DNA of 64,000 bases from an uncultured Planctomycetaceae bacterium (GTDB taxonomy: Bacteria; Planctomycetota; Planctomycetia; Planctomycetales; Planctomycetaceae): positions 124,001 to 188,000 of the forward strand of contig CAXBME010000009.1 in NCBI GenBank assembly GCA_963976765.1, given 5' to 3'. Positions 37,316-64,000 of this stretch are shown piece by piece. Within the stretch, counting starts at the first letter, position 1, and each line of letters opens with the position of its first letter. The position numbers and the translations under genes were made by a program. Below the pieces are notes generated by a model that had not been told where the DNA came from, searched no databases, and saw only the letters and a list, made by a program, of their open reading frames with translations.

Positions 37316-37446
37316 TGGTGGGAGACATAAAGGTTGAAACGCGGCGCGTTACTCCGAAAGGACTTACGTCGACGCGAGACACAAACCCTGCAACGGTTGA
37401 GACACAAAGTTTGAGCTGTTCCGCTATTTGAGACACAAAGTTTGAG
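37316..37446 (+). mobile_element. Tn7-like transposon end of the element extending rightward (four TnsB-site repeats)
   Basis: TGGTGGGAGACA at 37316. GAGACACAAAGTTTGAG-type repeats at 37322, 37376, 37399 and 37430. The 8-bp terminus followed by GACA matches Tn7 geometry (TGTGGGCG-GACA). Confidence 0.8.
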
Positions 37447-37498
37447 CCGCCAATCGGACTCGTCAGAATGAAGCCCGGAAGGAGTCGGCGTCTTGAGA

Positions 37499-38572
37499 TC
37501 ACGTGTAAGTGAGTGCGAGTTCGGATTCTGAAATTTCGCAGGTCACTGATACCGCATTCGTAAGTTCATTGCCTTGGGGCTCCAAGGCATCCGCTGGCTG
37601 GGGCGGGGCTTTTGGAGTCGCCCATGACAGAGCAAACAACGGACTCCTGGTTGCACGGATTACAGCTTCCTGATGCTCTCTTTGTCGGCGTTCGGTGCGG
37701 ATGGACTGCTGAAGTACCGCGAGTTGCTGCCGATCACGCGGATCATGTTTTCTTTGAGATTGGCCAATTTCCCGGTCAATGCGGTATTGATATCGTTCTT
37801 CAGCGAATTCGGCTCGGCGTTCTGCGAGCGAGTGTTCTCGGAGGTCTTGTTCGCATCGATGGCGAAATTTTTCGCGCTCGAATTCAAGCCGCTGTTTGGA
37901 TTGTTCGTAGTCGAGAAGCATACCGGTGAATTTCGCAGATTGAGCCGGGTCGACAATTGGCATGTCCATGGCTGCTCGCGATTTAAGATGCAGCGACTGT
38001 TCAAGTGACTGAAGTCTCGCAGTTTCATCGTTGAAGTTCGGCCCGGTGGACGAGGCCAGGACGGATGCAACTATCGGTCCGCCCGAATATGCCGTTGCGT
38101 ATCGAGCCGCCTGCTCAAACCTGCCGGCACTACGCTCCGGGGCCATAACTTGAGCATCGATCCATGAGCTGGCATTGCGATTTTCTTCGATATCAAAGAA
38201 CAACTCGCGTGTGAGTCGAACAACCTCGATATCAATGGCCGTCTGTTCGACGATCGATTTATCACTGCTGCCACCGAGCACGAGAATGATGAATGATTCT
38301 CGAAGCGGGCTCGTCAGCCAGAAAGATTCCGATGTTGCAACTAACCGATGTCGTTCTGACGCGATCTCTGGACCAGACTCCATACAGGCTGCAAGGAAAC
38401 GCACCGCTGCATGGACGCTCTCATCAGCAATCTTGCGCATCCAACGAAGTGGGGCTTCCTGAATTGCAGTCGCAAGACGCCAACGCCATGCAGGGCCATT
38501 GAGAGTTCTATGCAGCGACCGGGCCTGCTCCACGCCTGCTTCGTCAGACAATCCACTCGGTGACATGGTCAC
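37499..38572 (-). CDS. hypothetical protein
   Basis: 357 aa, GAGGTG RBS, PAWRW..ELFFD..WI..AYSGGP, C-terminal coiled coil. Confidence 0.75.
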   Translation of the reverse strand: MTMSPSGLSDEAGVEQARSLHRTLNGPAWRWRLATAIQEAPLRWMRKIADESVHAAVRFLAACMESGPEIASERHRLVATSESFWLTSPLRESFIILVLGGSSDKSIVEQTAIDIEVVRLTRELFFDIEENRNASSWIDAQVMAPERSAGRFEQAARYATAYSGGPIVASVLASSTGPNFNDETARLQSLEQSLHLKSRAAMDMPIVDPAQSAKFTGMLLDYEQSKQRLEFEREKFRHRCEQDLREHSLAERRAEFAEERYQYRIDREIGQSQRKHDPRDRQQLAVLQQSIRTERRQREHQEAVIRATRSPLFALSWATPKAPPQPADALEPQGNELTNAVSVTCEISESELALTYT

Positions 38573-38592
38573 GTTTCACCTCTTGTGATGAT

Positions 38593-39048
38593 TTACTTCA
38601 TTGCCTCAGAGACATTCGTCTGCGGACGAGCCGACTGCCAGCCACGGATTTCAGCTCCCTGAATCCGCAGCCCGACAGCCGCCAGTTGATCGTGAAGTTG
38701 TCGCCGCGTCTTTCTGAGTTCTGACCGGACCGCTTTCCGACACTCGGATATAGATTCCTGTCGACGAAGTTCCTGCTGCACAAGTTGCAGTGTCTCTCGT
38801 ACCAGTGACACTCCAGCCTGATCACTTCCGAGATAGATCGATCTCTGTTTACTGCCAGACCGATAGACCAGCCGATAGTAAGGCCCCAGTCGGCGGCCTT
38901 TGTAAGACCGCCAGGATTCCTGGACGCTGCCTTGATGGCTGAAAACATCAGCCTGTTGGCGAATCAGACTGACGGCATCGATTATTTTTTGGTCAACAGA
39001 TTCGAGTTTTTCCAGGATCTCTTCGTCGGCTGAATGCGGCATGTTCAT
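38593..39048 (-). CDS. putative DNA-binding protein (GPYY..YR..KQRSIYLG motif)
   Basis: Beta-hairpin motif followed by a coiled coil; ATGA overlap with the upstream gene; paralogous to the N-terminus of the 40579 ORF. Confidence 0.7.
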   Translation of the reverse strand: MNMPHSADEEILEKLESVDQKIIDAVSLIRQQADVFSHQGSVQESWRSYKGRRLGPYYRLVYRSGSKQRSIYLGSDQAGVSLVRETLQLVQQELRRQESISECRKAVRSELRKTRRQLHDQLAAVGLRIQGAEIRGWQSARPQTNVSEAMK

Positions 39049-39497
39049 TCCGCTCCCGAAAATTCACGCTGGATCGGATCATATCCTCCCGGAAGAACTC
39101 CGTGCCGTTCACGGAAATCCTGCAGACGGACCCAGAACGCACTTGCCTTACCCTTGGCAGCAACAACTCTCAACAGTCGCGACACTTTAGTGTCTCTCTC
39201 CTGACGTGAATCGGGACTGCTATCTGTGTGCAGAAAGTCGCGACCGATTTCGAACATTTCAAGGACTTCGAGCCACAGCAACTGGACGATGGTGACGCCG
39301 GTCGATTGTTCAATTCCGGGCTTAGCGCGAAGCACGAGTTCCTCATAGGCAGGATTCACGAGTGCCAGAATGCCCGTTCGTAAATCCGATGGCAAGCTGT
39401 CAAAGTCGACGCCCTCGGGCATCCAGTACGGTCGAATTGCCGCTGGCCCTGCGGCATGATTTGTTTTCGTGTCCATGTCTTCTTGTTCCTGAATCAT
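39045..39497 (-). CDS. hypothetical protein
   Basis: 150 aa ORF in a tightly coupled minus-strand operon. Confidence 0.7.
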   Translation of the reverse strand: MIQEQEDMDTKTNHAAGPAAIRPYWMPEGVDFDSLPSDLRTGILALVNPAYEELVLRAKPGIEQSTGVTIVQLLWLEVLEMFEIGRDFLHTDSSPDSRQERDTKVSRLLRVVAAKGKASAFWVRLQDFRERHGVLPGGYDPIQREFSGAE

Positions 39498-40579
39498 GAA
39501 ATTGAAGTTCGTGCAGCAACGGAGACATCTGGTGGGGCTCGGCGTCCCCCCACGTCTGTGTCTGCCTGCACGGGTATCAGATTGCTGTTTCTTCGGAATG
39601 GCCGGTTGAAGTGCCCCACTGCATAGCTGAAACCGCTCGCGTCACTTAACCGGTGCGCTGGCTTGCAGCTTCGCCCAGTCGAACGTCCAGGCGTGCAAGA
39701 CGTTCGGTCATCTGAACGGTTTTCAGATAAACCTGGAGACCCGGCATGAGGGTTCGCAGCCGGTCCGAACGTCCGGCATCGACTTCCAGGCTGTCGTCGA
39801 TCGCCAGTTTCAGATCGTGACACATTTCGAGAAGATCGCTTGCAACAGGACCGAGGCACGCTCGAAGCGAGTCGGGTGAATCGAGCGATGCCTCCAGGTG
39901 TTTCTGGATTCGAGCTTTTCTCTTCTCGGCCAACTGGTTGCCTCCGACCGTTTGTTGGCTGATCGGTGGCATTGGTCCTTCGGATGGCAGAATTGCCTGA
40001 TCTCTGTTCGTACTGTCCGTCGTCATTCTCTTTTCCCTCCGTGTCGATGAATCCGCCGGTCATGACGCTCGTGCCGGCACGTTTCAAATTAACTTCGTCA
40101 GAATCAACACCAGGCATCGATGCCTGGTGTTGTCGAATCTCAGCACCATGAAAGTGGTAGCCAAGTACCTCAAGAATCGGACTCAACTGCTGACGCGACT
40201 CACGCAGCAACTCTTTCGCTCGCAACATGAGCCGATTCAGTTTCCGCCACGCCTCTGTCCGTTTTTGCAACTGTTTGAGTTCTTGCTGGGCCTGTGCAGC
40301 ACGTTTGGATGACTTTCCCAGTCCTCGGACGACCTGGCAGCCGTCCCTGCGAAAACGCAGTTTGAAGTATGTTCCGGAAGGTCGGATTTCGGCCGATACG
40401 AATCCCTGCCGTGATAACGACTCCAGGTCGGACTCTGTCAGATTCAAGGACGCAAGCAGCGGAAATGCGTGTAGAGCCCGTTGCGATCGGCATGATCCGA
40501 ACGGTAGCGAACAATCCGGAGATCCACAGATTCTGCTACTGCTGCAAGAGCACTGAGAGGTTTCGGCAATACTTAACAT
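39494..40579 (-). CDS. putative DNA-binding protein; only the first ~150 aa look genuine, the tail reads through the next gene
   Basis: SRQGFV..GTYFKLRFRRDGCQVVRGLG...GYHFHGAEIR aligns with the 38593 gene. The start overlaps the stop of the 40573 gene. Confidence 0.55.
   Translation of the reverse strand: MLSIAETSQCSCSSSRICGSPDCSLPFGSCRSQRALHAFPLLASLNLTESDLESLSRQGFVSAEIRPSGTYFKLRFRRDGCQVVRGLGKSSKRAAQAQQELKQLQKRTEAWRKLNRLMLRAKELLRESRQQLSPILEVLGYHFHGAEIRQHQASMPGVDSDEVNLKRAGTSVMTGGFIDTEGKENDDGQYEQRSGNSAIRRTNATDQPTNGRRQPVGREEKSSNPETPGGIARFTRLASSVPRSCCKRSSRNVSRSETGDRRQPGSRCRTFGPAANPHAGSPGLSENRSDDRTSCTPGRSTGRSCKPAHRLSDASGFSYAVGHFNRPFRRNSNLIPVQADTDVGGRRAPPDVSVAARTSIS
39646..40026 (-). CDS. hypothetical helical protein
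   Basis: GGAGG upstream of ATG 40026; protein-like composition; nested in another frame of the 361-aa ORF. Confidence 0.7.
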   Translation of the reverse strand: MTTDSTNRDQAILPSEGPMPPISQQTVGGNQLAEKRKARIQKHLEASLDSPDSLRACLGPVASDLLEMCHDLKLAIDDSLEVDAGRSDRLRTLMPGLQVYLKTVQMTERLARLDVRLGEAASQRTG

Positions 40580-41793
40580 GGTCGTGAAAACTCCCGATAA
40601 ACTTGCAGAATCTGACCGACAAGCAGCTGCAGATTGCGTGCGTCACCAAAATCTGGCTGCCGTTCACGCCGGCGCCCCTCGATCACCCAGCGTGCCTCCC
40701 GGACAACTCTGCTTTCGGCATGACAACGCGTCATCAATTCAGCGACATTGATGAGCAACGCGCTGCGCAGAGGGTCTCGATCACTCGTGGCCGCATCACG
40801 AATGCGCTGGATGACCTCCTGGTCGTAGAGTAGATTCAGTCGGTCGAGTTTCGCCGTCAGCGATCGCTCCTGACCTCTCACCGACTCTGCGCGGCGAAGA
40901 TCAGTAGTGATTTCATGCCTCACTTCCGCGTAGTTACCCGGTGCTCCCGATACCGTAGGCGGCGCGGCTGCTGGGCACACGGAATCAGCGATGCTTTGGC
41001 GAAGGAATCGACGAACGAGGTCTTTGTCCTGCAGATCCACCGCCGTGCGAATTTCGTTCAGGTCACTTGAAGCGGGCTGCCAGGCAAACATCAAATCTGT
41101 GTCAAAACCAAGGACGGAATCCGCTCGATAGATCAACCGGCGAATCGAAACCATCTCTTCAGATACTTCATTCCTGATCGATGATAGATTCCAGCCGGCA
41201 AGAACGATTTGAGTCGGGTTTCGGGCTATATCCGCTCGTTGTTTTCCTCCCGGTTCACCGCTGCGAATTTCTGCTGGGCGTCCAAACAACAACCGCAGTT
41301 GAGGGCCTTTCATGGCAGCAAGGCCAGCGGCCAACGTAGCAGGAATTCCAAGCGTCCGAAGAACTGCCAGATCGCTTAAGCTGAACGCAGCGACAACCTT
41401 TTTCCTCAGCGAAATTGACGCCGACTTTGTCGTCGAGTCGCTCAATGCCCTGAACACCGCTGGCTCTTGAGAAACTGGCAGAACACCATTGGCCATCACC
41501 AGTTCGAGCGGCAAGTCGACGCTTTCATCGAATGATGCCGCGAATTGAGCCTCTGACCTGTTCAAAAGCGGATGAAGGTCTACGTTTTCACCCACTCGGA
41601 CACACACGCCCGACTGAATTAAGGTTGCGACATCAAATTCACTGTGAAGCGCATCACGAAGATCAGCGGGATCGCATGTCAGACGTCTGACGCTCGAATC
41701 AGCACCGAGAAACTCCCAGCATACAGGAAGTGAAAGAGGCTCGGTCTGAGCAAATACGAATTGGAGAACTGATTCGATAGCCAAGTCGTCCAT
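40573..41793 (-). CDS. degenerate DnaG/TOPRIM-like protein
   Basis: L..EFDVATLIQSGV and KVVAAFSLSDLAVLRTLGIPATLAAGL..QIVLAGW resemble the DnaG core, but the catalytic Glu and DxD are absent. GGAAGG RBS. Confidence 0.5.
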   Translation of the reverse strand: MDDLAIESVLQFVFAQTEPLSLPVCWEFLGADSSVRRLTCDPADLRDALHSEFDVATLIQSGVCVRVGENVDLHPLLNRSEAQFAASFDESVDLPLELVMANGVLPVSQEPAVFRALSDSTTKSASISLRKKVVAAFSLSDLAVLRTLGIPATLAAGLAAMKGPQLRLLFGRPAEIRSGEPGGKQRADIARNPTQIVLAGWNLSSIRNEVSEEMVSIRRLIYRADSVLGFDTDLMFAWQPASSDLNEIRTAVDLQDKDLVRRFLRQSIADSVCPAAAPPTVSGAPGNYAEVRHEITTDLRRAESVRGQERSLTAKLDRLNLLYDQEVIQRIRDAATSDRDPLRSALLINVAELMTRCHAESRVVREARWVIEGRRRERQPDFGDARNLQLLVGQILQVYREFSRPC

Positions 41794-41810
41794 GATACCT
41801 TCCCTGGCAA

Positions 41811-41899: not shown

Positions 41900-42544
41900 A
41901 TGCCCGAATCCAATTCAGAACTCACCCGACAACGCTTCCAACAGTTACTCAATGACCTTTCTGAAATGGGACTAACGCAGCGAGAGATCGCGGACAGGGT
42001 CAACATCCCGCCTCAATACGTTTCGAATCTGAAGACCGGCCAGCGAGAGATGAAGGAGCTGGTGGCGCGGCGATTTGGAACCGTCTTTGGATATAACTAC
42101 GAGTGGCTGCTCGGAAACTCAGACAAGAGGAATGCACTGACGATCGCGTCGACTCTCACGGAGTCATTGAGCCGGAAGTTCCCGGTGCTGGATCTTCTGA
42201 TTGAAGGCGATCCTCAATCGAATGAAGACTGGGACGGTACATTCGCTGAATTGAGCGGCGCGGCAGCGGTGCGAGTCCGAAGCTGTCATACTCCATACGT
42301 GCTGAGATGCTCCATTGACGATCTCCAAGGAAGAATTCGACAGCGCGATCTACTTCTCATTTCGCAGGAAGCGCGTGAGGACGCCGAAATCCATGTTGTT
42401 CGCCATCGAAAACGACTCGTACTCGCCCGTGCAGGAGCGGAAGGACGCTACCAGCGAGTCAGCGATGGGCAGGAACTGACTGCAGAATGCACCGTGGTCG
42501 CACATTGCGTGGGGATCGTCTGGGCATCGCTGGTCGGTAGTTGA
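41900..42544 (+). CDS. XRE/CI-like repressor (HTH + degenerate S24-like domain)
   Basis: GLTQREIADRVNIPPQYVSNLKTG..YEWLL. The C-terminal YVLR..D....I..RDLLLI..VVAHCVGIV lacks the GDSM serine. Confidence 0.8.
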   Translation: MPESNSELTRQRFQQLLNDLSEMGLTQREIADRVNIPPQYVSNLKTGQREMKELVARRFGTVFGYNYEWLLGNSDKRNALTIASTLTESLSRKFPVLDLLIEGDPQSNEDWDGTFAELSGAAAVRVRSCHTPYVLRCSIDDLQGRIRQRDLLLISQEAREDAEIHVVRHRKRLVLARAGAEGRYQRVSDGQELTAECTVVAHCVGIVWASLVGS

Positions 42545-42837
42545 GTTGCCTCTCACTTCGTTGAAGTCAGGCCGCCCCAACCGTTCGTCGGCGAGAATCC
42601 CGGGGAAACTCACAGCACATGTCCGCTTAAACAACTTTGACGGGCCTCAATACGTAAAAAACCTGAATAAACGCGAAAAACGGGGCATAATGAAGTAGTG
42701 AGGCTCCGGTTAGATCTCACACCTCAGGTATTCGAGCCTGCAGCTCACATGGGTACGTCGACTTCGTCTTCCCGACTTACGGTTGAAGACTGATGTCTGC
42801 CACGTGCTTCAACACCTCGCTCTCGAAGGAGACCAGC

Positions 42838-43710
42838 ATGAAACGATTGCGGAAGAAGTGCGCGCCGATTGAGAATGCGTCCGACTTTTCAGAGTCGTCG
42901 CCGGCGGCCTCGCGCGCCGCGTGGACTGGTTGTCTCAGGATTGGAGCCATCATCGCGCACGTGCGTGCTTATCCATCCGCGAAGGATGATGATGGACCTG
43001 AACTGCACCAGTTTCACCGAGGCTGCGGTAAGCGGATTCAGTGTCCCCGGATGTGCCCGAAGCACGGAACTCTCGCCAGTGAAGATATCGTCAAAGGCAT
43101 TGAGTCCGCGAATGGAAAACCGATTCTTATGGATGAAGACTCTCTGCGACGTCTTCGTCCGCCAAAGGATGAAGAACTTGTACTCGAACGATTCGTCGCT
43201 GCGGCAGACATTGATCCAGTGATGTATTCGGGCCGGCACCTCTACATAGCCCCGGCTTCGAAAGTGGCTGCCGCGCCGTTTGGCTTGATGGCCGGGACTC
43301 TCTCCAGACTCGGGAAGCTGGGAGTCGGACAACTCACCGTAAACGGACGAAAGAGTCTGGTTGCCGTGATGACTCGGGCTCAGCGATTGACGCTTCATTT
43401 TCTCCATTACCCAGGACAGATTCGCTCAGTCCCAGCCTTCGATGTGGTGACTGAGGATGCGAGCTTCGGTGCGCCGCTGGTTGAACAGTTTGTCAACGAG
43501 CGAAACAGCCACGTTGACTGGTCGGGCTATCAGGACCCTGTCCCTGGAATCGTGGACGAACTGATCAACACCCACAGCTCAACGCGTCGAGGTCGGCGAA
43601 AGTCGACACCACGGGCGACCGCCACCAAGTCGGACAAGTGCAACCCGACGAAGGCGACTACCTCAAGTCTGACCGGCAGGAAGTCGTCTGTTCGTAGAAA
43701 CAGCCGATGA
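42838..43710 (+). CDS. ku: Ku DNA end-binding protein
   Basis: RAAWTGCLRIG, LHQFH..CGKRI...MC, EDIVKG.E, ERFV...DIDP.MY, LHFLHYP.QIR, YQD, basic tail. GAAGGAG RBS before ATG 42838. Confidence 0.85.
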   Translation: MKRLRKKCAPIENASDFSESSPAASRAAWTGCLRIGAIIAHVRAYPSAKDDDGPELHQFHRGCGKRIQCPRMCPKHGTLASEDIVKGIESANGKPILMDEDSLRRLRPPKDEELVLERFVAAADIDPVMYSGRHLYIAPASKVAAAPFGLMAGTLSRLGKLGVGQLTVNGRKSLVAVMTRAQRLTLHFLHYPGQIRSVPAFDVVTEDASFGAPLVEQFVNERNSHVDWSGYQDPVPGIVDELINTHSSTRRGRRKSTPRATATKSDKCNPTKATTSSLTGRKSSVRRNSR

Positions 43711-44531
43711 AAGAAACGTCTCCACCCACTCCCGCGTTATCCCTGACGCCATCAACCTTTCGCCTGAGACGAAGAACACCAGGCTCTTTTCTGCTGATTC
43801 CATCGGTCCGTGAAGGACGTTGCATTCGCTGTCAGGGACAACTTGAAGGAAAGGCCGCACTGATTTTGGCCGCATGCCCATCCGTGACGTTGCTGCAGGA
43901 GCAACCAGGCCAAATCTGGTACGAATGGGATACGACTTCCAACGATGTGATCCGACTCTTTGACGAACCTCAACGGTTGAGTCGCCGTAAGTGTCGCCTG
44001 CGAACCAGCTACATCGTTCCCGACTTTCTTGTCGAAACTCGACGGCACAAACGACTGATTGAAGTCAAACCATCCAGGCGGCTGCACAAACCGGACACTG
44101 TGCGCAAGCTTTCGGTCGCTCGACTCTATGCGCAACAGAACGAAATGACATTTCACGTCCTGACTGAGCGGCATCTGTCGCGTCAGCCTCTGCTGGACAA
44201 CGTCCGACAGCTCAGTCGCTACTCCAGATTTGAATCCGACCACTGTCTCGTGAGGGCAATCATCGACGGCGTTTCCCGTGATGGAACGTCGACCCGCCAG
44301 TTGGTGACACAACTTGATCAGCCTGATTCAGTCCTGACGTGGCACATCCTCTTCCTGCTGGCAACCCACGAGGTAAGCACCGACCTGATTCAGCACTCGT
44401 TGAATACTGACTATCACCTCTATCCGAAAGGAGTTCTTGAATGGGATCCGTTCGAATCAGTGTGGGCACCGAATGGCTCGCTGACGGACGGGTCTGGCGA
44501 GTTGTTCGACAACCCAGCCCTGAAGTGCTGA
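43707..44531 (+). CDS. tnsA: TnsA-like endonuclease
   Basis: LE, EQP..I.Y, YIVPDFLV, LIEVKP, F.VLTE motifs (PD-(D/E)xK); C-terminal wHTH. Confidence 0.85.
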   Translation: MKETSPPTPALSLTPSTFRLRRRTPGSFLLIPSVREGRCIRCQGQLEGKAALILAACPSVTLLQEQPGQIWYEWDTTSNDVIRLFDEPQRLSRRKCRLRTSYIVPDFLVETRRHKRLIEVKPSRRLHKPDTVRKLSVARLYAQQNEMTFHVLTERHLSRQPLLDNVRQLSRYSRFESDHCLVRAIIDGVSRDGTSTRQLVTQLDQPDSVLTWHILFLLATHEVSTDLIQHSLNTDYHLYPKGVLEWDPFESVWAPNGSLTDGSGELFDNPALKC

Positions 44532-46480
44532 TCGCCAAGGAACACAAATCAGCCACGGAAATGGAATTGCATCTCGATGAAGTCCTTCGTGAATTCACGA
44601 GCGGGAGACTGAGTCTTCTCGACACCACTCCAGACAGCTCGACGAGCGTGGTGTCCAGAACCCGCGACATTCGTGATCTTCCGGTGAAACAGCGTGAGAT
44701 TGTGGAACAGCGCTGGAACATGATCGAGCCCCTTACAACGATGGAATGCAGTCCGACCAATACAGACTTTGAAGTCAGGGCCACGCAACTGCGGCAGGAA
44801 GGAATCAACACGTCCCGAGCATCACTCCGACGATACTACTCGGCATGGAAGGATTCAGGTGGAGATCCACGAGCAATTACTCCCCGCCTGGGACGATGCG
44901 GAGGACGTGGCCGGTCGCGACGGGACAGTCAACTGGCTCAGTATCCAATGCTCAATCGATTCGTTGAGAACAGCATCCGTGATGTCTATCTCACCACGGC
45001 ACGGCGTCCAATCTCAGCGGCGGTCCGACGAGTTCTGGAAGACGTTCAGCGACTGAATTCACGATTGCCTTCGGACAAAGCGTTACCGGTTCCACGGGAG
45101 CGGTCACTCTCTCGGGCCATTGCTCGAAGGATCGAGCGGATGGATCCGTGGGAAGTCGACCGGCAGCGGTGGGGAAAGCGGATCGCTGATCAACGACACG
45201 CGCCTCGGACTCCCCAGTCCATGGCTCGCCGGATTCTGGAGCGGGTCGAGGTCGACCATTCGCCGCTGAAGGTTGTCGTTGGCACGCAGGCCGGTCCGAT
45301 TGGGCAACCGTGGCTGACCGTACTGATTGACTACTACAGCCGGATGATTGTCGGCTTCTGTCTCGGGTTTGATCCGCCCTCGTACGCTGTGCTGATGGAA
45401 TCCTTACGCCACTCCATTCTCCCAAAGACTGAGGCCGCCTCAACTTATCCATCAGTAAAAGGCAGCTGGCCGTGTTTCGGAATTCCCGAGATGATCGTTT
45501 GTGACCGGGGAACGGACCTGACAAGTAACGATCTGGAAAATGCCGCGTTTCAACTGGGCATCGTGCTCGACTTCAACCCGCCGCGCACGCCGCATATGAA
45601 GGGATGCGTCGAATCATTCTTTGGAGGACTGAACGACCAGTTGATCTCTGCACTGCCGGGGCGAACATTTCGCAGCTGGGAGAAACGGGCCGACTACAAC
45701 GCTGACGACGGGCCGTTGCTGCCCTATGAATCGCTGCTGGAAATCATCCACGTCTATCTCATCGACGTCTACGCCCTGTCGAAACATCCGACCATTCCAC
45801 AGACCCGACTTGAGGTTTGGCAGGACAGTGCCGCCGAGTATCCGCCGTTTTTGCCGGGTTCGCCAGAAGACCTCGTCGTGCTGCTGTCGAAGCGGGCCGA
45901 GCGGACACTTTCGACACGCGGCATCGAACTCGGTGGCATGTTCTATATCAGCGACGATCTGATGGCACTACGCGCCGATCTCGCAGCAAACAATCTCAGC
46001 TCAGACCGCATGACGGTGCGGTACAACCCCTGGAACCTTGGCTCGATCCGTGTGCTGAATCCAATTGACGGTTCGTACATTCGCGCGAACGCTGTGGATG
46101 AGACTCTCGAAGGAATGACGGAGTTTCAGTGGAAAGTTCTGAAGCGTGCAGTGAGGGAGCGATTCGATTCGCCGGATTACCAGATGTCACTGGCCGAGGG
46201 TCGGAACGTCATCCGTGACATCGCCGAAACCACAATGAAGAAACCGTCGAAACGAAGGCGAACGAAGGCCGCCCGTTTTCTGGGCGAATCGCGTTCGGCC
46301 AACATGGATGATACGACTGCTACCTCTCAGATCGTCGCGGCTTCGTCAGCATCAGACACTGCCAGCAAAATTCTAACCAAGCCGGACGCTGTGACTTCAC
46401 AGCCTGCCGACGCCGACACGGATTGCGAATTTGATGACCTTGATCTCGACAACTGGGAGGTTGATACGACCAGCACCTGA
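44441..46480 (+). CDS. tnsB: TnsB/TniA DDE transposase
   Basis: VEVDHS (D), PWLTVLIDYYSR, IVCDRG (D), KGCVESFF (E), Mu-type C-terminus VRYNPWNLG. AGGAG RBS. Confidence 0.92.
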   Translation: MGSVRISVGTEWLADGRVWRVVRQPSPEVLIAKEHKSATEMELHLDEVLREFTSGRLSLLDTTPDSSTSVVSRTRDIRDLPVKQREIVEQRWNMIEPLTTMECSPTNTDFEVRATQLRQEGINTSRASLRRYYSAWKDSGGDPRAITPRLGRCGGRGRSRRDSQLAQYPMLNRFVENSIRDVYLTTARRPISAAVRRVLEDVQRLNSRLPSDKALPVPRERSLSRAIARRIERMDPWEVDRQRWGKRIADQRHAPRTPQSMARRILERVEVDHSPLKVVVGTQAGPIGQPWLTVLIDYYSRMIVGFCLGFDPPSYAVLMESLRHSILPKTEAASTYPSVKGSWPCFGIPEMIVCDRGTDLTSNDLENAAFQLGIVLDFNPPRTPHMKGCVESFFGGLNDQLISALPGRTFRSWEKRADYNADDGPLLPYESLLEIIHVYLIDVYALSKHPTIPQTRLEVWQDSAAEYPPFLPGSPEDLVVLLSKRAERTLSTRGIELGGMFYISDDLMALRADLAANNLSSDRMTVRYNPWNLGSIRVLNPIDGSYIRANAVDETLEGMTEFQWKVLKRAVRERFDSPDYQMSLAEGRNVIRDIAETTMKKPSKRRRTKAARFLGESRSANMDDTTATSQIVAASSASDTASKILTKPDAVTSQPADADTDCEFDDLDLDNWEVDTTST

Positions 46481-56058: not shown

Positions 56059-56659
56059 CACCGAAATCGGCGGCTTTGCCGTGACATCACCGGACGATCT
56101 GCTGATGGTCGAAGATGTCAGGCTTGTGCGTCAACGATGTACGGCGGTTACGGTCGCCTTCGACGACTCATCCGTCGCGGACTACTTCGACGAACAAGTT
56201 GATGCGGACCTGAAGCCGGAACAGTTCGGACGCATCTGGCTCCATACTCATCCTGGCGACTCCGCCGAACCGAGTACGGTCGATGAAGAGACTTTCGATC
56301 GGTGCTTCGGCAACTCAGATTGGTCGGTGATGTTCATTCTGGCTCAGGACGGAGCAACGTACGCACGGCTGCGTTTCAACGTTGGTCCCACAACAACTCG
56401 AACCATGAAAGTTGAGATTGACTACTCAATGCCGTTCGCTGCGGCAGATGGCGAGGCGTGGCAGGCTGAGTACGACAGCAACGTTATGACTCAATCGCCT
56501 TCGTACTGTCTCGAAGGCGAGGCATGGGAAGACGAAGGATTGTCTTCACGCCCCTGCATCGACCAGCGGATGATCGAACACGACTGGTTCGAACGTTTCG
56601 ATGCCGAACCACTTTTCCCAGAACATGAGGAGACTCGATGGCTTGCAGCGCTCGACTGA
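55904..56659 (+). CDS. JAB/MPN (JAMM) metalloprotease
   Basis: [22 protein letters not shown] (E..HxH..S..D); GGAG upstream of ATG 55904. Confidence 0.85.
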
Positions 56660-57291
56660 TCCGACAAACAGATCTTGTTCCAGAACGACGGCTTACAGAG
56701 GTAACAGCGACGGTCATCGGAGTCGGAGCCATCGGTCGGCAGGTGGCTCTGCAGCTGGTGTCGCTCGGTGTGCCGTCAATTCAGTTGATCGATTTTGACT
56801 CGGTCGACAACACCAATGTCACCACACAGGGATACTCGACGTACGATATCGGTGAACGGAAAGTCGAAGCAACGGCAGCGGCGATCGCCAGAATTGATCC
56901 CGATGCGGATGTCACCGCAGTCGTCGATCGGTTTCGTCCTCGTTGTGATATTGGTGACGCGGTCTTCTGCTGCGTCGATTCTATTTCTGCTCGCACTGCC
57001 ATCTGGCGATCAGCTCAACACGGATGCCGATTCTGGAGCGACGGTCGCATGCTGGGCGAGACGATTCGAGTGGTCTCCGTCAGCGAAGACATCGGTCGAT
57101 CATCTTACCCCACAACCTTGTTTCGTCAGTCCGAAGCTCAGACCGGCGCCTGCACTGCTCGGAGCACAATCTACTCAGCCAGCGTCGCCGCCGGACTGAT
57201 GCTCCACCAATTCACCCGCTGGCTGCGCAATCAGCCGATCGATACTGACCTGTCATTGAACCTGCTGGCCAGCGAAATGACGGTGGCCTGA
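56638..57291 (+). CDS. ThiF/E1-like adenylyltransferase
   Basis: [35 protein letters not shown], candidate catalytic Cys in GACTA. Confidence 0.88.
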
Positions 57292-57342
57292 CACAAGTCC
57301 CGACGGTCTGAACCTTTCACATATCTTGAAAAGGGGGACCGC

Positions 57343-57477
57343 ATGGACTCACTGTTGGGAACACTGATCCTGGCTGGCTTCATCTATTGGGCGTACAAAC
57401 ACGGAAAAAGAACCGGCAGCCGCAAAGGCTACAACGTCGGCTTCTCCCGAGGTCGCAACCGCCACTTCCGCCGCTGA
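57343..57477 (+). CDS. small basic membrane protein (44 aa, below ORF-track cutoff)
   Basis: AAGGGG RBS; MDSLLGTLILAGFIYWAYKHGKRTGSRKGYNVGFSRGRNRHFRR. Confidence 0.6.
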   Translation: MDSLLGTLILAGFIYWAYKHGKRTGSRKGYNVGFSRGRNRHFRR

Positions 57478-58378: not shown

Positions 58379-59485
58379 TCATCGCTGCTCAACGGGCTCA
58401 CGCGCCGCTCGGACGTTTGGCCCAGTGCACATGGCAGACACGCACTCGATCTCCGTCGATCGTCTGACTCGGCCACTTCGCAGCCCAGTGACGTCCATCT
58501 CGTGCCCGAACAGGATGTGATTTACCTCGGCCTGAATCAGCTCCGCGGATTGCTTGTACATTCCACCGCGTGGTCCGGCGAACTGGCAGGTCCACGCCGC
58601 CAGAGACTGACCAAACCTGAGGGCTTCCTCGACATTGATCTGTGTCAGCTTTGCTGAATCTGGTCGACCGAGTTGCTGAAGCAGGTGAACGAGACCTGCA
58701 GTGCACCAGTCACCCGCGCCTGCGGTGTCGAGTACAGACGGCGCTGGGCACTGAGGCAGCGACTTCCACGCAGCACGTTTTGACCGCTGGCTCGCGAGTC
58801 GGTACCGCAGCCCGTCTGCTCCCTGTGTTTCAACCTGTAGCAGCGGGCGATTTGTCCCGGTCAGTCCGCTCATCTCGTTCATGCGTTCGTCCGAGTACTT
58901 GAGGACGTGGACGTACTGCAATGCTTCACGGAATTGTTTGGGGTTCGCGTTCGCTGACGGCTCGAAGACTACCCAGGAACCGTTTTCGTGATACCACTTA
59001 GCGAGATTGACAGCAGCCCTTGAGACACGGTCGAAGAAATAGACGTCCGCGGCGGGAACGGCTTCCGTAACGGTGTCGACACATGAACCAACGACAGCTT
59101 TGTATCCCGGCAACCACGCCCCACATCCCGGGCAGGTCCACACGAATCGATGTACGGACTCGCCCGATGGCTTTCGCTTGATCCTCTCGACAACGACGGG
59201 CGTGGTAGCGCGTGGAGTCAGTGAGGCCAGACTCGTGTTCACGCCCCAACGTCGCATGTCACGAAGAATGGTCTGCCCAGCGCGATCGTCTTCCAGCCGC
59301 GCCACCGGAAAGGCATCCCATCCGAGCCACGCCATGATTGTCATGACATTGCCACACGTACCGCCCGCAAAAAGCCGCTGATGCTCGGGGCTCACGTCGT
59401 CGATCACAACATCGAGAGCCGTCAGACCGGTGCCGACGATGGTGGGTGTTGAACGTGACTTGCGGAACGGGTCATTTGCACTCAT
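58379..59485 (-). CDS. PfkB/ribokinase-family kinase with CPGC insertion
   Basis: G...LDV, AGGTCGNV, VVFEPS, VLKYS.E, TQGADG, DTAGAGD. Confidence 0.88.
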   Translation of the reverse strand: MSANDPFRKSRSTPTIVGTGLTALDVVIDDVSPEHQRLFAGGTCGNVMTIMAWLGWDAFPVARLEDDRAGQTILRDMRRWGVNTSLASLTPRATTPVVVERIKRKPSGESVHRFVWTCPGCGAWLPGYKAVVGSCVDTVTEAVPAADVYFFDRVSRAAVNLAKWYHENGSWVVFEPSANANPKQFREALQYVHVLKYSDERMNEMSGLTGTNRPLLQVETQGADGLRYRLASQRSKRAAWKSLPQCPAPSVLDTAGAGDWCTAGLVHLLQQLGRPDSAKLTQINVEEALRFGQSLAAWTCQFAGPRGGMYKQSAELIQAEVNHILFGHEMDVTGLRSGRVRRSTEIECVSAMCTGPNVRAAREPVEQR

Positions 59486-60600
59486 TGATCTGCTTCCTTG
59501 CTGTTGTCCTGCGGGTACGCCTCACCGTGAAGCCAGAGATGTACCATCCTGACCTGCTCGGCATCATCAATCTTGTCCTGATCCATTCTGTAGCCGACGG
59601 CCTCTGATCGTACGACGGGGAAGTCTCGATCGATTGCTGCGAGCATTGCTCCGATGGCCAGCATCTTCCGGCCGAATGGAGACAGAATGGTCATCGAACC
59701 GCCTACGTCGCGGAACACCTGTTGCCGAATGTCATCAATCCTGAGAATCGTACGATACAGGTCAAGAGGGTAGCTGTCGTGGGCATAGACGATGTCACGC
59801 GAGTCCACCTGCCACGTGCTCTCAAATTCGTCTCGAAATGCCCAGATCAGATCGTCCCCAAGTCGCGGCCGAGAAGGCGCGAACGGGATGACCGGGCAGA
59901 CGGCGTCCGGTTCGAGCCAGTTGTAGACTCGCCCCAATACCTCGGGGACACTTTCACCGAGTCCAAGTTGAGGCAACCACAGCTTCGCCGCTCCGCGACT
60001 GGCATCGAGTCCCAGCTGCCCGCCGAAACCATGAACCGGCGTGGCTCGATCGGAAGCGATCGACGTAATGGCTCCGTCAGTCAGTGGTTCATCGATTGCA
60101 AACAGATGCAGGTTGACGGTTTGGCCGCCCGGCTTCTGTTCCGCATATTCCAATAAGAGCCGTACGAGAGGAAATGCCACACCGATCGACATCGCACTGA
60201 AATCGACGATCAGGTCGGTTGTGCCCGATTCAAGATGCTTCTGAACGCGTTGAACTGCCGTGCGTCCGCCGGTAACGGCCTGGTCACCCGACACCATGTT
60301 GATCCGCTCCACCTGATGGTTATCGAAGCGGGCCTGAATTGCATTCGTGTTGTCGTCAGCACGCTTGACAAGAGTATCGTCCGTCAGCGGAACATCTTCT
60401 CGCAGAATCACGCAGTGCGTGTCTTTCGCACACGCGTCTGCGACATGATCGGCAACGATGCGTGATCGTGGATCGAAGCCTCCACCGCAAACCAGGATGA
60501 CCTTCCTATCTGCGTCAGTAAAGAAGTCCTGAACGAAGGCGATGGCAGCATCACCCCAATGCTGCACACAGTCGTCCCAGCGTCCACGGTTCCGCATCAT
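59482..60600 (-). CDS. hypothetical protein, tandem Rossmann/CARF-like
   Basis: VILVCGGGFDPRS, LIVDFSAMS, ILSPFGRKMLAIGAMLA. Confidence 0.6.
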   Translation of the reverse strand: MMRNRGRWDDCVQHWGDAAIAFVQDFFTDADRKVILVCGGGFDPRSRIVADHVADACAKDTHCVILREDVPLTDDTLVKRADDNTNAIQARFDNHQVERINMVSGDQAVTGGRTAVQRVQKHLESGTTDLIVDFSAMSIGVAFPLVRLLLEYAEQKPGGQTVNLHLFAIDEPLTDGAITSIASDRATPVHGFGGQLGLDASRGAAKLWLPQLGLGESVPEVLGRVYNWLEPDAVCPVIPFAPSRPRLGDDLIWAFRDEFESTWQVDSRDIVYAHDSYPLDLYRTILRIDDIRQQVFRDVGGSMTILSPFGRKMLAIGAMLAAIDRDFPVVRSEAVGYRMDQDKIDDAEQVRMVHLWLHGEAYPQDNSKEADQ

Positions 60601-62528
60601 GGTTTCTCCTCAACGATGCGGGCCAGTTCAGCGATCGAGCCTTCAATAAAATTCCCCTGACTGAGGGAAAGACCATGCTTCAGAATGGCTACGCCACCAA
60701 GTTCCAGAATGCACCAGAGTCGGTCTTTGCATTTGTACTTCGGCCGAATGTCAAAGGCGTTCCAGGCAATGCCGAACTTCAACACTGATCGCAGGTCCTG
60801 CCGACTCGCAGTGAGTTTGTCGTACTCTTCCTGGGGTACTCCGTAGGAATTGGGACGTAGCCACCCATTCGGCTGCAGAGTTGTCTCGCGACACCGTTTT
60901 CCAAGAGCGTCGACGAGATGCCTGACCTGCGGGTGCCACGGGAAGTTCCATTCCCGCATGATCCGGTCCGCCTCATCCCGCAGAATGTGGTTCTGGTCGC
61001 GCGGTTTGAGAAGCCCTGGCTTTCCCCGGGTTAATTGTGTTGCGCTTCGCTCAACCAGCTCGCCGGCAAGGCGCAGGAATGTCTCTGCATTCTCCGTGGC
61101 GACGTCGGCGATCCGGTCGATCCCGTAGTAGTAAGGCCGCTTGTTCCTGTGGAGAAGCACGAGATTCGCCGACTCGAACACTTCCGCATTGGCAGCCACG
61201 GGCCGACTTGGCTCCGGGTCATCCACTTCTGGAAACAGACTCGGCCCTTTCGTCCGCTTTCGATACCGGTACATCAGAATTTGCAACATCGCGTGGAACA
61301 CATCTGTGTTCCGTTCAAGGTCAGAGTCTGGTTGCCGGCTCGACTGCAGGTAGTTGTTGACTGACTGCTCCAGCGACTGACGTCGCGAATCGGACACGTT
61401 CAGTCGTCGCTGAACCTTGGCCGATTCATCCTCTAATTGACGTACGGTCGCGTCACTGACCGTTGGTAACTCATGCTCAAGCAGGCTGACGAACGAAGTA
61501 ATACCCCGCTGCTGGAACACCGAAATGTGGCGCAAGTAGCGGTCTGCCATGCTGCGTGCCATGCCGCGAAACTTGCGTTTCTCTCTTCCTTCTTTTCCCT
61601 GAAGTCGAACGAACAGAAGTTCGCGTCTTGTCTTCATCCCGGTGTGTGGCTGCGTAGCCTCTGGATCAGTCGAAGCTGCGCTCAACACTTCGTCCGGGCT
61701 CAGTACATCCAGCCGCGTCAGCAACCACCGCGCTACTCGAATTTCCCGACGCGTCAGCCAACGTGTCAGTTCCTTGTATTGCTCCTGATGTAGCTCGTGA
61801 GCATCGTCGAAGATGGCCAGAGGGCGTAAGTTAAACTCGACTCCGTCGTCTCCTCGAACACGAAAGGCTTCAATGACATCGAATGGCTGGTAGGCCTTCG
61901 TTGCATCTTCTTCGAGTTGCTCCACCGGAGGCGGCAGCAGTGCCGCAACAATCGAGTAGAGAGCGGACTCGACCTCGCATGCACGTTTGAGCAGTTGCGC
62001 TGCAGCAGTTCCGCCTATTGAGGCGACTGTCGCCTCAGCGTCCTGCCTGGCAACAGCCTGAACGTCATCCAGCGAATAACCTGCTTCTTCAAGTTGTCTC
62101 AACCAGGCAATGACAGATCGCGCCTGAAGCAGCGATGTCATGAGCCCAGCCTTCAGGCTTTCGGGGTAAGGGCACTCCCAGAAGTCGCGGTAGTCAGACT
62201 CCAGTTGAAGCCGGCACCCTAGTATCAGCGGTCTGTCGTCAGCGAGGACTCCACAGTTTGCGAGCGCGGCCACAAGTTCCGTGTAGTCTTTCTCGCGGTT
62301 GCCACGCATCTGCAATAGCGTCTGCACGGAACGGAACGAAAACGTTCTGCCAATGGTCGTCTTGCCGCTCCCTGGAGTACCGCAAATAACAACAGGTCGA
62401 TCGTAGAGGTCGCTGTTCTGCGCATGCTTCTCCAGGAATCGCGTGATCGGTTCTGGCGCAACGACGGATAGAAACGCCACGTCGTCTCGAAAATGTTCCG
62501 TTGTACGTTTTTTGAACGGATTATCCAT
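60597..62528 (-). CDS. P-loop ATPase (ORC/CDC6- or STAND-like)
   Basis: NPF N-terminus, Walker A GTPGSGKT, Walker B AIFDDAHEL, PYYYG, wHTH-like C-terminus. Confidence 0.75.
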   Translation of the reverse strand: MDNPFKKRTTEHFRDDVAFLSVVAPEPITRFLEKHAQNSDLYDRPVVICGTPGSGKTTIGRTFSFRSVQTLLQMRGNREKDYTELVAALANCGVLADDRPLILGCRLQLESDYRDFWECPYPESLKAGLMTSLLQARSVIAWLRQLEEAGYSLDDVQAVARQDAEATVASIGGTAAAQLLKRACEVESALYSIVAALLPPPVEQLEEDATKAYQPFDVIEAFRVRGDDGVEFNLRPLAIFDDAHELHQEQYKELTRWLTRREIRVARWLLTRLDVLSPDEVLSAASTDPEATQPHTGMKTRRELLFVRLQGKEGREKRKFRGMARSMADRYLRHISVFQQRGITSFVSLLEHELPTVSDATVRQLEDESAKVQRRLNVSDSRRQSLEQSVNNYLQSSRQPDSDLERNTDVFHAMLQILMYRYRKRTKGPSLFPEVDDPEPSRPVAANAEVFESANLVLLHRNKRPYYYGIDRIADVATENAETFLRLAGELVERSATQLTRGKPGLLKPRDQNHILRDEADRIMREWNFPWHPQVRHLVDALGKRCRETTLQPNGWLRPNSYGVPQEEYDKLTASRQDLRSVLKFGIAWNAFDIRPKYKCKDRLWCILELGGVAILKHGLSLSQGNFIEGSIAELARIVEEKP

Positions 62529-63663
62529 TCAGCACCTGTCCCTGCTTATCCAGGGAATCATCAAGCACGTCGTGCCGCTGTCTTCTGGGAAAGAGCGGCC
62601 GCATCTGATGCACGTCCTGATTCCCTGAACTTGTCGCCCACAGAAGAGGAATCGTGTTGTTCGGAGTGTTGTGGTCGAGAATGACGGGCAGTCGGCTGTC
62701 GCCGTAGCCAAACATCATTGATTCGCAACCACTTTCACGCACATGCTTCTCTGGCGCGATGGATGCGTCGAAGTGCCTCGAAATCAGATCGAGCACGTCG
62801 GCATTCTCTGTTTCTTCCATCCGAATGGACTGCGGCAGCACCATCCCGAACGTGAATTCGGCATCGAACCAGTTGCCCTCAGCGGCACGTTCTGCATGTC
62901 TCTGCAATACTGCCTCTCGTGCACGCTGAGTGGCCAGATAATGATGGACGTGAATTCTGACGTCGTCGGAAAGGTGGCTTCCTGCAAACTGCCGCGACTC
63001 GTCCCAGAAACGGCGCAGCTTCCCCTTCCACTTCCCATCCACGAAACGCAACAGGCTGGTTCCGCTTGCGGTAAAGTCGTCAAGTAGAAAGACGAATTCA
63101 AAGCGAGCCTCGGCGTCTCCCAGCTCGTCTTGAAGGTCCTTGAGCAGGTCGTCCCACTTTTCTCTATTAAAACGTGACGTGGTGACAATCTGCTCGTTCG
63201 AGATGGTGCCAGGATTCGCTCGCCGAAACACATCGATGCGCGCACCATCGCTCAGTTCGATAAAGAGGCACTTTCTTTGCAATTTTCCCAATGCATTGCT
63301 GGCCTCTTGATGAACACGAACCTGGTAGTCTGCGATGCCATAACTGTCTGCAACAAACCGTAAGATTTCCGGTCGAAAAAACTCAGGCCAGCTCAGCCCA
63401 ATCAGGTGGTGCATCTCTGCTGTGCTGATGAAGATGAGCTGATCGCGAACGAAGCGGTAAGCCGTTTTACGGTCTTCAAGTGCTCCGAATTGTTGAACCC
63501 AATCCAGCAACCGCTCTGAAAAGCGGGCACCGGCAAGGAAATCCTGATAGCCGTCGTACTTCATCCGCGACATCAGTTCGATACGCGCAAATTCAGCTTG
63601 AGCCGTGTCGTCGTCCCACGACATGACCTCAGCCAGCTTACGGAGAACGTATTGAAGGTTCAT
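62521..63663 (-). CDS. phosphoribosyltransferase-like protein (conflict-type PRTase)
   Basis: PRPP loop FLLDDFTASGTS; GYG..LPVIL.HNTPNNTIPLLW..PLFPR. Confidence 0.8.
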   Translation of the reverse strand: MNLQYVLRKLAEVMSWDDDTAQAEFARIELMSRMKYDGYQDFLAGARFSERLLDWVQQFGALEDRKTAYRFVRDQLIFISTAEMHHLIGLSWPEFFRPEILRFVADSYGIADYQVRVHQEASNALGKLQRKCLFIELSDGARIDVFRRANPGTISNEQIVTTSRFNREKWDDLLKDLQDELGDAEARFEFVFLLDDFTASGTSLLRFVDGKWKGKLRRFWDESRQFAGSHLSDDVRIHVHHYLATQRAREAVLQRHAERAAEGNWFDAEFTFGMVLPQSIRMEETENADVLDLISRHFDASIAPEKHVRESGCESMMFGYGDSRLPVILDHNTPNNTIPLLWATSSGNQDVHQMRPLFPRRQRHDVLDDSLDKQGQVLNG

Positions 63664-63998
63664 GGTCGCGGCTTTCGCTTGAGTCGGTTCACATCAATTC
63701 GAAATCGGCCGTCCTTTGCGATCATGGCATTCAAATATACGACTGCTGCCTGCGGTCCCAGGTATCCGGCAGGCGCTACGTTCCAGCCCGAGGCCGAGTC
63801 CGGAGACACCTGTGCGACACTGAGAGAATATGGTTCCGCAAGCAGTTCAAAGTCGTTACCGGGGGCGCACCCGAGGTCACCCACCGTCAATACTGGCTCG
63901 TCATCACCCCACCCATGATTCGCGCTCAGAGCCTCAAGGACAGCCAGCTTAGATACGCCCGAGGCCAGAATGTCGACCGAGTGTGTTGACCAGAGAAC
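63660..63998 (-). CDS. HAD-IIB family phosphatase, 5'-partial
   Basis: Frame is open to the window edge: STHSVDILASGVSK (motif III Lys) and TVGDLGCAPGNDFELL (motif IV). Confidence 0.75.
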   Translation of the reverse strand, partial: VLWSTHSVDILASGVSKLAVLEALSANHGWGDDEPVLTVGDLGCAPGNDFELLAEPYSLSVAQVSPDSASGWNVAPAGYLGPQAAVVYLNAMIAKDGRFRIDVNRLKRKPRP

Positions 63999-64000
63999 TC

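Follow-up and report, generated by a model that had tools for sequence, protein, structure and literature searches.

The window, which is the whole stretch of 64,000 nucleotides analysed here, lies on contig C9 of the genome G000 and carries, from position 37316 on, the left part of a large mobile element (Table 1). The right end with the matching 5-bp duplication is found on another contig of the same genome, C31.

Table 1. Features of the element and of its left-hand neighbour, in positions of the window.
Feature	Position	Strand	Basis or remark
Internal attachment-site copy (degenerate gyrB 3' end), within an older tandem element's right end	37164..37226	-	local alignment
Right end of the older element	37267..37310	-	pair of TnsB-type sites; CA terminus at 37310
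5-bp target-site duplication ACAGA	37311..37315	+	equals the 5 bp outside the right end, G000:C31:62152-62156
Left end of the element	37316..37445	+	four TnsB-type sites
Left arm, six ORFs (406, about 190, 126, 150, 151, 357 aa)	37499..41793	-	without useful family or fold match
CI-like repressor (HTH and S24-like domain)	41900..42544	+	phrog_4 E 1e-11; divergent from left arm
Ku-like DNA-end-binding protein	42793..43710	+	PF02735 E 5e-24; overlaps tnsA
TnsA endonuclease	43707..44531	+	PF08722; conserved EQP, PDF and EvK motifs
TnsB DDE transposase	44441..46480	+	rve, Mu-transpos_C
TnsC AAA+ ATPase	46507..47538	+	TniB, AAA_22
TniQ with C-terminal HTH_17/MerR-type domains	47539..49557	+	putative gyrB target selector
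67-aa membrane peptide, 200-aa lipoprotein-like protein, DUF1257, DUF2997, 231-aa Toprim-like protein	49548..51473	+	profiles; weak GajA match (Toprim-like)
AAA ATPase, 319-aa protein, conserved ORFs of 79 and 68 aa	51511..54572	+	319-aa protein without known family
Pre-ubiquitin-like protein (Ubl)	54632..54913	+	conserved K-I/V-E/Q/S-G, then Ala and variable tail
E2-fold protein	55003..56058	+	N-terminal helical hairpin, invariant HPH and Cys180, Cys-rich multi-zinc C-terminus
JAB peptidase	55955..56659	+	HTH-x7-S-x2-D in 34/34; start codon uncertain
Single-domain ThiF-type E1 (217 aa), then 44-aa membrane peptide	56638..57477	+	conserved Cys172; GxCT in 34/34
Defence-type operon: HAD-containing 647-aa protein, PRTase-CE, ORC-CDC6-like ATPase, CARF6, PfkB	58379..64000	-	cargo

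The left end begins with TGGTGG, followed by TnsB-type repeats at 37322, 37376 (weak), 37399 and 37430. Throughout the genome strong clusters of such repeats occur only here and at C31:62163-62206, and in three of the four public runs compared the homology starts precisely at 37316, with differing left flanks. The ends read TG...CA and bear arrays of TnsB sites which are asymmetric between left and right, as is characteristic of Tn7-like elements. The sole right end with a matching 5-bp duplication is the one on C31, 10 bp past the gyrB stop codon. The two contigs are not joined by the assembly and closing the gap by contig overlaps was unsuccessful, therefore the pairing relies on the 5-bp match and the single left end; if the two ends do pair, the island comprises at least 130 kb. 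A second matching 5-bp duplication was found in G901, again across unlinked contigs, and a junction in G982 is compatible with a duplication of 4 bp. Left ends were looked for and not found in G091, G1049, G123 and G253, nor was that of the older element, whose inverted right end stops 5 bp short of 37316. A circular junction as explanation for the back-to-back ends at 37310 and 37316 was rejected, because the 5 bp between them are the same as the duplication at gyrB and because the left-hand one is only 71% like the C31 end.

TnsA, TnsB, TnsC and a TniQ/TnsD protein are encoded in a single operon, just as in other Tn7-like transposons. An earlier note on this DNA had placed the tns genes more than 6 kb inside the end, which holds true (the tnsA start is 6,391 bp inside), as does its overlap of tniQ with the next ORF, which encodes the conserved 67-aa membrane peptide; the older element's inverted right end with its gyrB copy is not mentioned there. 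Searching for TnsC in 400 other genomes of the phylum gave no match, and for TniQ in plasmids one match of 20%. Neither relaxase nor type IV secretion genes, as known from ICEs, were found among the 39 proteins encoded between 28.8 and 64 kb of the window. The Ku-like gene is the sole Ku gene in the genome, where no LigD was found. Ku is located upstream of tnsA in all 17 loci with sequence upstream of tnsA and shows the same deep split as TnsB; Ku is a core gene of this element.

Comparing carrier genomes reveals a clear end 10-11 bp past the gyrB stop codon in 14 out of 18 informative ones and a degenerate end in one more, while none of nine non-carriers from other genera has an end after gyrB. 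The right end follows gyrB in a fixed orientation and at a fixed distance across families, and the gyrB 3' end is the attachment site of this Tn7-like transposon. No clear end at gyrB was seen in the carriers G1002, G1080 and G1138, and two right ends (G982 C94 and G986 C594) are preceded neither by gyrB nor by a copy of it nor by a left end. According to sections of two papers (PMC11014353, PMC11406308), Tn7017 and the Acinetobacter parE elements likewise combine TnsABC with a TniQ-family selector and insert downstream of the gene for a type II topoisomerase B subunit. In contrast to the parE-targeting elements the target here is gyrB (a 42%-identical paralogue on C34 is without end cluster), the selector is one 672-aa TniQ-HTH protein, compared with about 486 and 170 aa in the same sections, and Ku and an internal target copy are present. 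With the prototype Tn7 at glmS, as part of PMC11014353 describes it, the element shares a right end next to an essential gene, the fixed offset, the 5-bp duplication and asymmetric ends, but here no TnsE was found, insertion beside or inside residents is repeated, and the target is copied internally.

This internal copy, at 37164-37226, reached a local alignment score of 63, compared to a maximum of 39.5 in 200 shuffles, and real gyrB contigs from other runs align at the same place. Right ends from the subclade of the window carry such a degenerate copy about 110 bp inside: it scores above all 200 shuffles in seven of 22 sequences tested (two each from G000 and G982, one each from G901, G253 and G984) and also exists in G985 and G986. 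As it is missing from 11 other ends, the copy is not required for transposition. Five further ends in G985 are situated 43, 44, 42, 43 and 44 nt behind gyrB copies and one in G982 lies 42 nt behind its copy, all filled copies thus coming from two genomes of one genus, with the G985 assembly being fragmented and 79% complete. Because the spacing at the true gyrB site is 43 nt, the internal copy appears to be a working target. The G985 units are of three types, common to other genomes, and neighbouring units are 70-74% alike except for one pair with 97%.

The copy could, on the other hand, be a relic or another kind of binding site (a TniQ sink, or a site for autoregulation or end pairing), and the G985 array could stem from gyrB and the copy having recombined unequally instead of from repeated targeted insertion. 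Similarities of 97% between units 2 and 3 and of 95% between units 1 and 4 would agree with recombination, as would the many copies, most of those seen, that are empty, and the target immunity which should block insertions at the copy. However, the stretch of 42-44 nt that separates a copy from the following end is element sequence rather than the tail of gyrB with a spacer, the ends in G985 alternate among three types, and the G000 end, 88% identical, has an empty site where unit 5 of G985 is filled. We consider this explanation unlikely. Strong target immunity has been measured for Tn6022, as reported in part of PMC11014353, and immunity of that type is at odds with an insertion only some 100 bp away from TnsB sites; the tandem and nested ends suggest that immunity may be weak or bypassed in these elements. 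Islands of the Tn6022/AbaR type also grow by insertions within or beside residents, and the same part of PMC11014353 ties this growth to one branch, often with a TnsC'-'TnsF fusion, whereas here a target copy in cis would direct it, at the canonical spacing.

The left arm is variable: it was found entirely in G901 only, with the 406-aa gene also in G123. Phage satellites of the P4/PICI type possess a tyrosine or serine integrase with att direct repeats, a primase or replication protein, packaging or capsid-hijacking genes, and a repressor with a divergent AlpA/Cro-like regulator. The locus had previously been read as a hybrid of such a satellite, which would mean induction through a CI switch, packaging by a helper phage, and Tn7 proteins in place of the integrase. 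The CI-like gene is indeed divergent from the arm, separated by 106 bp which include an operator-like 8-bp inverted repeat and a leftward sigma-70-like site (41863-41836; the promoter scan overall was not above shuffles). For a Cro/AlpA-like partner there was no match. In the sibling G982 a terminase large subunit occupies the same arm (phrog_675 E 1e-66), and the 39 proteins scanned include neither TnsE nor a conjugation gene that would account for the spread; both observations would suit a satellite. Against this, neither integrase nor primase, capsid or packaging genes were recognised in the arm and no portal match was obtained, the core genes include no integrase, the ends are transposon ends, and no terminase was found in G000. 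The right-end pattern is absent from viral contigs (0 matches), and an element of at least 130 kb would have to be accommodated. A primase reading of the 406-aa protein was set aside (six homologues, a poor model with pLDDT 57, no structural or profile match), and the 357-aa protein had no usable match in an Atlas search. Since the CI-like gene is present in only three of 17 loci and lacks Ser at the presumed catalytic position of the S24 domain, induction by RecA or mitomycin seems doubtful. The CI arm is a variable passenger, and the satellite reading is very improbable.

On the other side of the tns genes, the earlier note had described a run without a gap into the AAA and Ubl modules. The genes are nearly contiguous up to 54241, but then follow a gap of 124 bp and, between Ubl and E2, a hairpin (54944-54982) of 18 pairs with a T-run, so that the description is only approximately right. 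The Toprim and lipoprotein labels are presumptive, based on sequence motifs and the weak GajA match, and the name DUF3150 was discarded for the protein of 319 aa, which did not match that family at E<=1. Ubl, E2, JAB and E1 are all present as claimed, with intact and conserved catalytic motifs. The K-I/V-E/Q/S-G pattern followed by Ala is found in 27 of 27 Ubl sequences compared; Pfam gave no match, and sequence and context suggest a beta-grasp fold. Structural comparison supports the E2 fold weakly (Foldseek E 0.05; Z 7.7), and the VIA-align match list consists mostly of helical hairpins. The E2 is matched by 1,782 clusters (50% identity).

Bil type I/II and Bub operons, as covered in parts of 10.1101/2024.11.21.623953 and PMC1779556, likewise encode separate Ubl, E2, JAB and E1 proteins and a pre-Ubl with a tail after Gly. 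A probable Ubl, an E2 with catalytic Cys and a JAB are shared with Bil, but the E1 is a single ThiF domain and not of the IAD-AAD-CYS type given for Bil in that part of the preprint. Bil acts against phages through conjugation to virion proteins. Differing from Bub, which is marked by a DUF6527 protease and Tyr/Ser oxyester chemistry, Cys is invariant in E1 and E2 and DUF6527 had no match. Unlike in both, the E2 bears an additional helical hairpin and Cys-rich tail, and the cassette is linked to DUF1257/DUF2997/AAA and mobility genes. PRTRC cassettes are associated with plasmids. They too are ThiF/E2/JAB/Ubl-type cassettes on mobile elements (NCBIfam TIGR03736), but the score of 38 is far from the cut-off of 144.75, and neither ParB nor any other PRTRC family was matched. 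The literature searched contains no description of the present cassette, which may be listed in Burroughs et al. 2011 or in supplements.

Of 19 other loci, 16 have AAA and Ubl modules next to the Tn7 core, with the genes arranged in three or more different orders, confirming the suspected co-occurrence. The cassette could still be a passenger anti-phage system similar to Bil, acquired repeatedly since it is abundant in planctomycete islands, with only Ku-tnsABC-tniQ forming the core. The cassette is polyphyletic (p-AU 7e-43) with its nearest kin in the host's own serine-recombinase islands, E2 homologues exist in 20 of 40 genomes of the family with 1-5 copies, the decayed element G1005 has no cassette, and the same set of four activities is known from Bil systems (10.1101/2024.11.21.623953). 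On the contrary, the cassette adjoins the tns genes, on either side, in 16 of the 17 loci where its presence could be judged, while the true defence cargo varies per element; it is translationally overlapped with tniQ, and its AAA half occurs in viral contigs. We regard a passenger as somewhat unlikely. In total the cassette is commoner without Tn7 genes: 20 other loci have no Tn7 gene, and 11 of these 20 islands have a large serine recombinase nearby. DUF1257/AAA plus Ubl-E2-JAB-E1 is a general backbone of planctomycete mobile elements which these transposons keep and exchange. Because the modules are common to such non-Tn7 islands, the element may fairly be described as a Tn7 mobility module on a mobile-element backbone; from the hybrid with possibly core downstream modules proposed before, this part survives and the satellite part does not.

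The defence-type operon, also present as claimed, is convergent to the E1-side genes, and its HAD-containing protein extends beyond the window to 65603. Five genes on plasmid NZ_CP146276.1 match it in sizes and order, and together with the profile matches this conserved order identifies a CARF6/PRTase-CE/ORC-CDC6-like operon. The true defence cargo is different in every element, and this operon is cargo, a variable passenger. No right end lies before it, so that neither of the two refutations named in the earlier note applies. The operon is not described in the literature searched; the CARF classification paper may list it.

Taken together, we interpret the element with a probability of roughly 0.7 as a planctomycete Tn7-like cut-and-paste transposon which homes to the gyrB 3' end, with copy-guided stacking, Ku in its core and a shared cassette backbone. 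The HTH repeats of TniQ would read the codons for LMGD.VEPRREFIEK, and TnsC would set the 43-nt offset. Incoming relatives may insert at the true gyrB site and displace the resident, which would give the junction of right end, 5 bp and left end seen in the window, or they may insert inside the resident, which would keep the gyrB-proximal end and gain the newcomer as cargo; insertions within residents could lead to stacked islands. Ku most likely caps the double-strand ends left by excision through TnsA and TnsB. In the cassette, JAB would trim Ubl after KIEG, Cys172 of E1 and Cys180 of E2 would relay it, the Cys-rich E2 tail might pick the substrates, and the AAA ATPase could remodel tagged proteins. 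For its role we would give about even odds to establishment or counter-defence during mobilisation, and anti-phage defence seems rather unlikely.

The most distinctive features of the element are the gyrB target and the internal target copy, neither of which is stated in the earlier note. These two and the pairing of Ku with Tn7 genes appear to be new as far as the literature searched goes, with the possibility that supplements list the gyrB site. Only tentatively do we propose a Tn7 lineage in whose right end an attachment site that regenerates itself has evolved under selection, which captures incoming relatives as cargo despite target immunity and is coupled to its own end protection by Ku and to an undescribed but widespread planctomycete ubiquitin/AAA pathway serving mobile elements and not the host, some members possibly using phage packaging.

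The element brings a putative target selector aimed at a highly conserved sequence of an essential gene (gyrB), usable for site-specific integration. Its proposed stacking gives a concrete, testable mechanism for the growth of Tn7-type islands and a natural case in which to see how far target immunity reaches, and a Ku probably tied to Tn7 excision bears on how donor breaks are handled. Finally, the cassette draws attention to a large, unstudied pathway of ubiquitination in bacteria, for which probable catalytic residues and a predicted processing site are already at hand.

The Tn7-like element whose left end lies at 37316 homes to gyrB, where it forms tandem and nested insertions. Strong clusters of its end repeat (consensus GAGACAYAAAG(G/T)TTGA) occur in just three locations across the 8.57-Mb genome, and one of these ends, on contig C31, begins 10 bp past the gyrB stop codon. 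The 5 bp separating 37310 and 37316 (ACAGA) recur just outside the end on C31. The simplest reading of the order gyrB, right end, cargo, left end, duplication, older right end is that of two successive insertions at the same site; a second matching duplication occurs in G901, one of the other genomes compared. In three of four public runs compared homology begins exactly at 37316 with differing flanks, while the remaining run spans the junction without differences and may be the source sample.

Ends and other features with coordinates (window positions unless a contig, C, or fetched locus, L, is named)
Feature	Position	Description	Spacing
Left-end cluster	from 37316, rightward	four sites	left-end
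Older right-end cluster	from 37310, leftward	two sites	right-end
gyrB-side cluster	C31:62157	three sites	right-end
G+C drop, left of older right end	30000-37100	~0.58 to 0.54; may be cargo left over from the older element	
361-aa ORF	39494-40579	resembles a ~190-aa gene extended across a separate conserved 126-aa gene (39646-40026)	
CI-like gene and core	from 41900, rightward	CI-like gene, Ku, tnsA, tnsB, tnsC, TniQ	
18-pair hairpin and T-run	54944-54982	Ubl/E2 interval; could give more Ubl than enzymes	
Region just inside the C31 right end (L026)	C31:62488-69700	IrrE/M78 peptidase, sigma-70 region-2 protein; type II CBASS-like operon (SAVED, SMODS, ThiF-containing protein, JAB)	
Second back-to-back right/left end junction, G982	L131:9280		
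Replaced left arm, G982	L131:9453-12363	terminase large subunit (GpA type), two unknown genes	
Broken tnsC, G982	L132:ca. 7600-12900	split by an insert of three genes, one a methyltransferase-like ORF, with part of tnsC duplicated around it	
Insert between CI-like gene and Ku, G123	L015:4709-8187	AAA and S8 protease pair, which we take to be IetAS-like	

Among other genomes, 4 of 400 from the class have a TniQ relative and 17 of 397 from the family have TnsB. The distinct carriers, 21 with the genome under study (G000), belong to three families, with TniQ identity as low as 34%. Leaving aside two without a recovered gyrB end and one whose contig stops 10 bp after gyrB, 18 are informative: 14 show a clear end 10-11 bp past the gyrB stop, one a degenerate end and three none. 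No end lies at gyrB in nine non-carriers from other genera, and four of five same-genus genomes without a TnsB match retain an end or a remnant. Known Tn7-like sites include parE, not gyrB, in the accessible portions of PMC11014353 and PMC11406308, and a term look-up of 'gyr' returned nothing from the available text of PMC10293859, PMC9881144 and 10.1101/2025.07.27.667033.

Some 110 bp inward, the right end contains a degenerate copy of the 3' part of gyrB, which outscores all 200 shuffles in seven of 22 sequences tested (two each from G000 and G982, one each from G901, G253 and G984) and was not seen in 11 ends from the other TnsB branch. G985 has a row of six ends after gyrB: the first sits 43 nt behind the matching sequence in gyrB itself, and the other five each sit behind a further copy, at distances of 43, 44, 42, 43 and 44 nt; G982 has one end 42 nt behind a copy, and a reversed-pattern control gave none in 26 genomes. 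Three types, about 70% alike, make up the G985 series: A-B-B-A-C, followed by a degenerate sixth unit. Type A is also found in G982 (94-95%), and type C is also found in G000 (88%); there, the site is unoccupied. Such filled copies could stem from recombination with gyrB or from targeted insertion. Because the bases between a copy and the next end are element sequence and not gyrB, the sequences favour targeted insertion. However, filled copies are confined to two genomes of one genus, one pair of G985 units shows 97% similarity, and the flanks of two right ends (G982 C94, G986 C594) are unrelated. Under targeted insertion TniQ would read gyrB and the copy alike, and via the copy a resident element would absorb newcomers.

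Contigs C9, which holds the window at 124001-188000, and C31 are unlinked in the assembly, and both finish in metal-resistance genes (named from ORF translations). No right end was found from E1 to the end of C9; therefore the defence operon is inside the element. A far end before the cargo, which the earlier note had named as refuting its reading, is thus not what was found. If the ends pair, the element measures at least 129,855 bp. In the accessible part of a published survey (PMC8649781), the Tn7-like elements measure up to 140 kb and the hosts include a single planctomycete species. Genes for metal resistance, ATPases, glycosylation and regulators form a long run on L001-L002, C9 to its end, C31, C60 and C68. 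C9 and C60 share paralogous blocks (84%) and C68 is a collapsed 10-kb repeat, which suggests that two related islands are present. The CARF6 gene of the defence operon occurs in one of 25 related genomes and in 19 plasmid records; on plasmid NZ_CP146276.1 five genes match the operon in size and order. Other elements bear different defence-type cargo.

The locus had been described correctly in substance: tnsA starts 6,391 bp inward of 37316, and tniQ (672 aa, with HTH_17/MerR-type domains) is overlapped by an ORF for a 67-aa peptide. Then follow a lipoprotein-like gene, DUF1257, DUF2997, a Toprim-like gene, an AAA ATPase, a 319-aa unknown, small ORFs, Ubl, E2, JAB and E1, and beyond E1 the convergent five-gene operon. 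The phage-satellite label of the earlier note is not supported. The CI-like gene, which lacks a Ser at the S24 position, is present in just three of 17 loci. The left arm behind this gene is unrecognisable in G000 and shared whole only with G901.

Nineteen other transposon loci were compared, excluding five short fragments from the TnsB search and the near-identical L018-L020. Ku and the cassette are conserved with the Tn7-like element. Ku lies immediately upstream of tnsA in all 17 loci with upstream sequence, its tree has the same deep split as that of TnsB, and in G000 it is a single gene, with no LigD found. By analogy with Mu Gam, Ku would shield excision breaks. In 16 of the 19 loci the core has cassette genes beside it (the exceptions are two contigs ending too early and one decayed element), so that the suggestion that the downstream modules travel as backbone holds. 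The cassette is wholly downstream of the core in G000, wholly upstream in G1049, and split in others (e.g. G1001, G1138), with Ubl-E2-JAB-E1 upstream of Ku and the DUF1257/AAA half downstream.

The cassette is not specific to Tn7. E2 is found in 20 of 40 family genomes (1-5 copies each). In 20 E2 loci picked for contig size from 52 matches, Ubl-E2-JAB-E1 is always complete, the AAA gene is present in 15, a large serine recombinase lies within the 20 kb in 11, and no Tn7, Ku or CI genes were found. G000 itself has five further DUF1257-DUF2997-AAA-319aa blocks (C33, C12, C56, C80, C5, C27), three behind serine recombinases. Those on C5 and C27, without Ubl genes, adjoin BREX-like genes and run on into a 467-aa unknown, a 169-aa protein and a PD-(D/E)XK nuclease. 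Four IMG/VR viral contigs (L194-L197) have a DUF1257-AAA-319aa-79aa block without ubiquitin genes. The Tn7-linked AAA genes do not group as a single clade (p-AU 7e-43 on a quick tree, with four changes forced), and the nearest non-Tn7 kin of the window's AAA gene are islands of the same host; therefore the cassette is retained but exchanged.

All 27 Ubl sequences compared end in a conserved K-I/V-E/Q/S-G followed by Ala and a variable tail, and in 34 of 34 cases the motifs of JAB and E1 are intact. Throughout the E2 family (1,782 clusters at E<=0.001) HPH and Cys180 are invariant, and the tail is Cys-rich; the predicted E2 model (pLDDT 91) gives weak matches to many E2 enzymes (best E 0.049, probability 0.91; against UBE2S Z 7.7, rmsd 4.0, 127 aligned). 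The cassette would work like Bil as portrayed in the accessible text of 10.1101/2024.11.21.623953, yet by membership test it falls outside Bil, and likewise outside Bub and PRTRC. Section 14 of PMC1779556 gives five operon types, none of them an exact match; Burroughs et al. 2011 may describe the cassette, and PMC7159879, in its accessible part, concerns a different Ubl system. We put it at about an even chance that the cassette would aid establishment; a role in defence would be considerably less probable.
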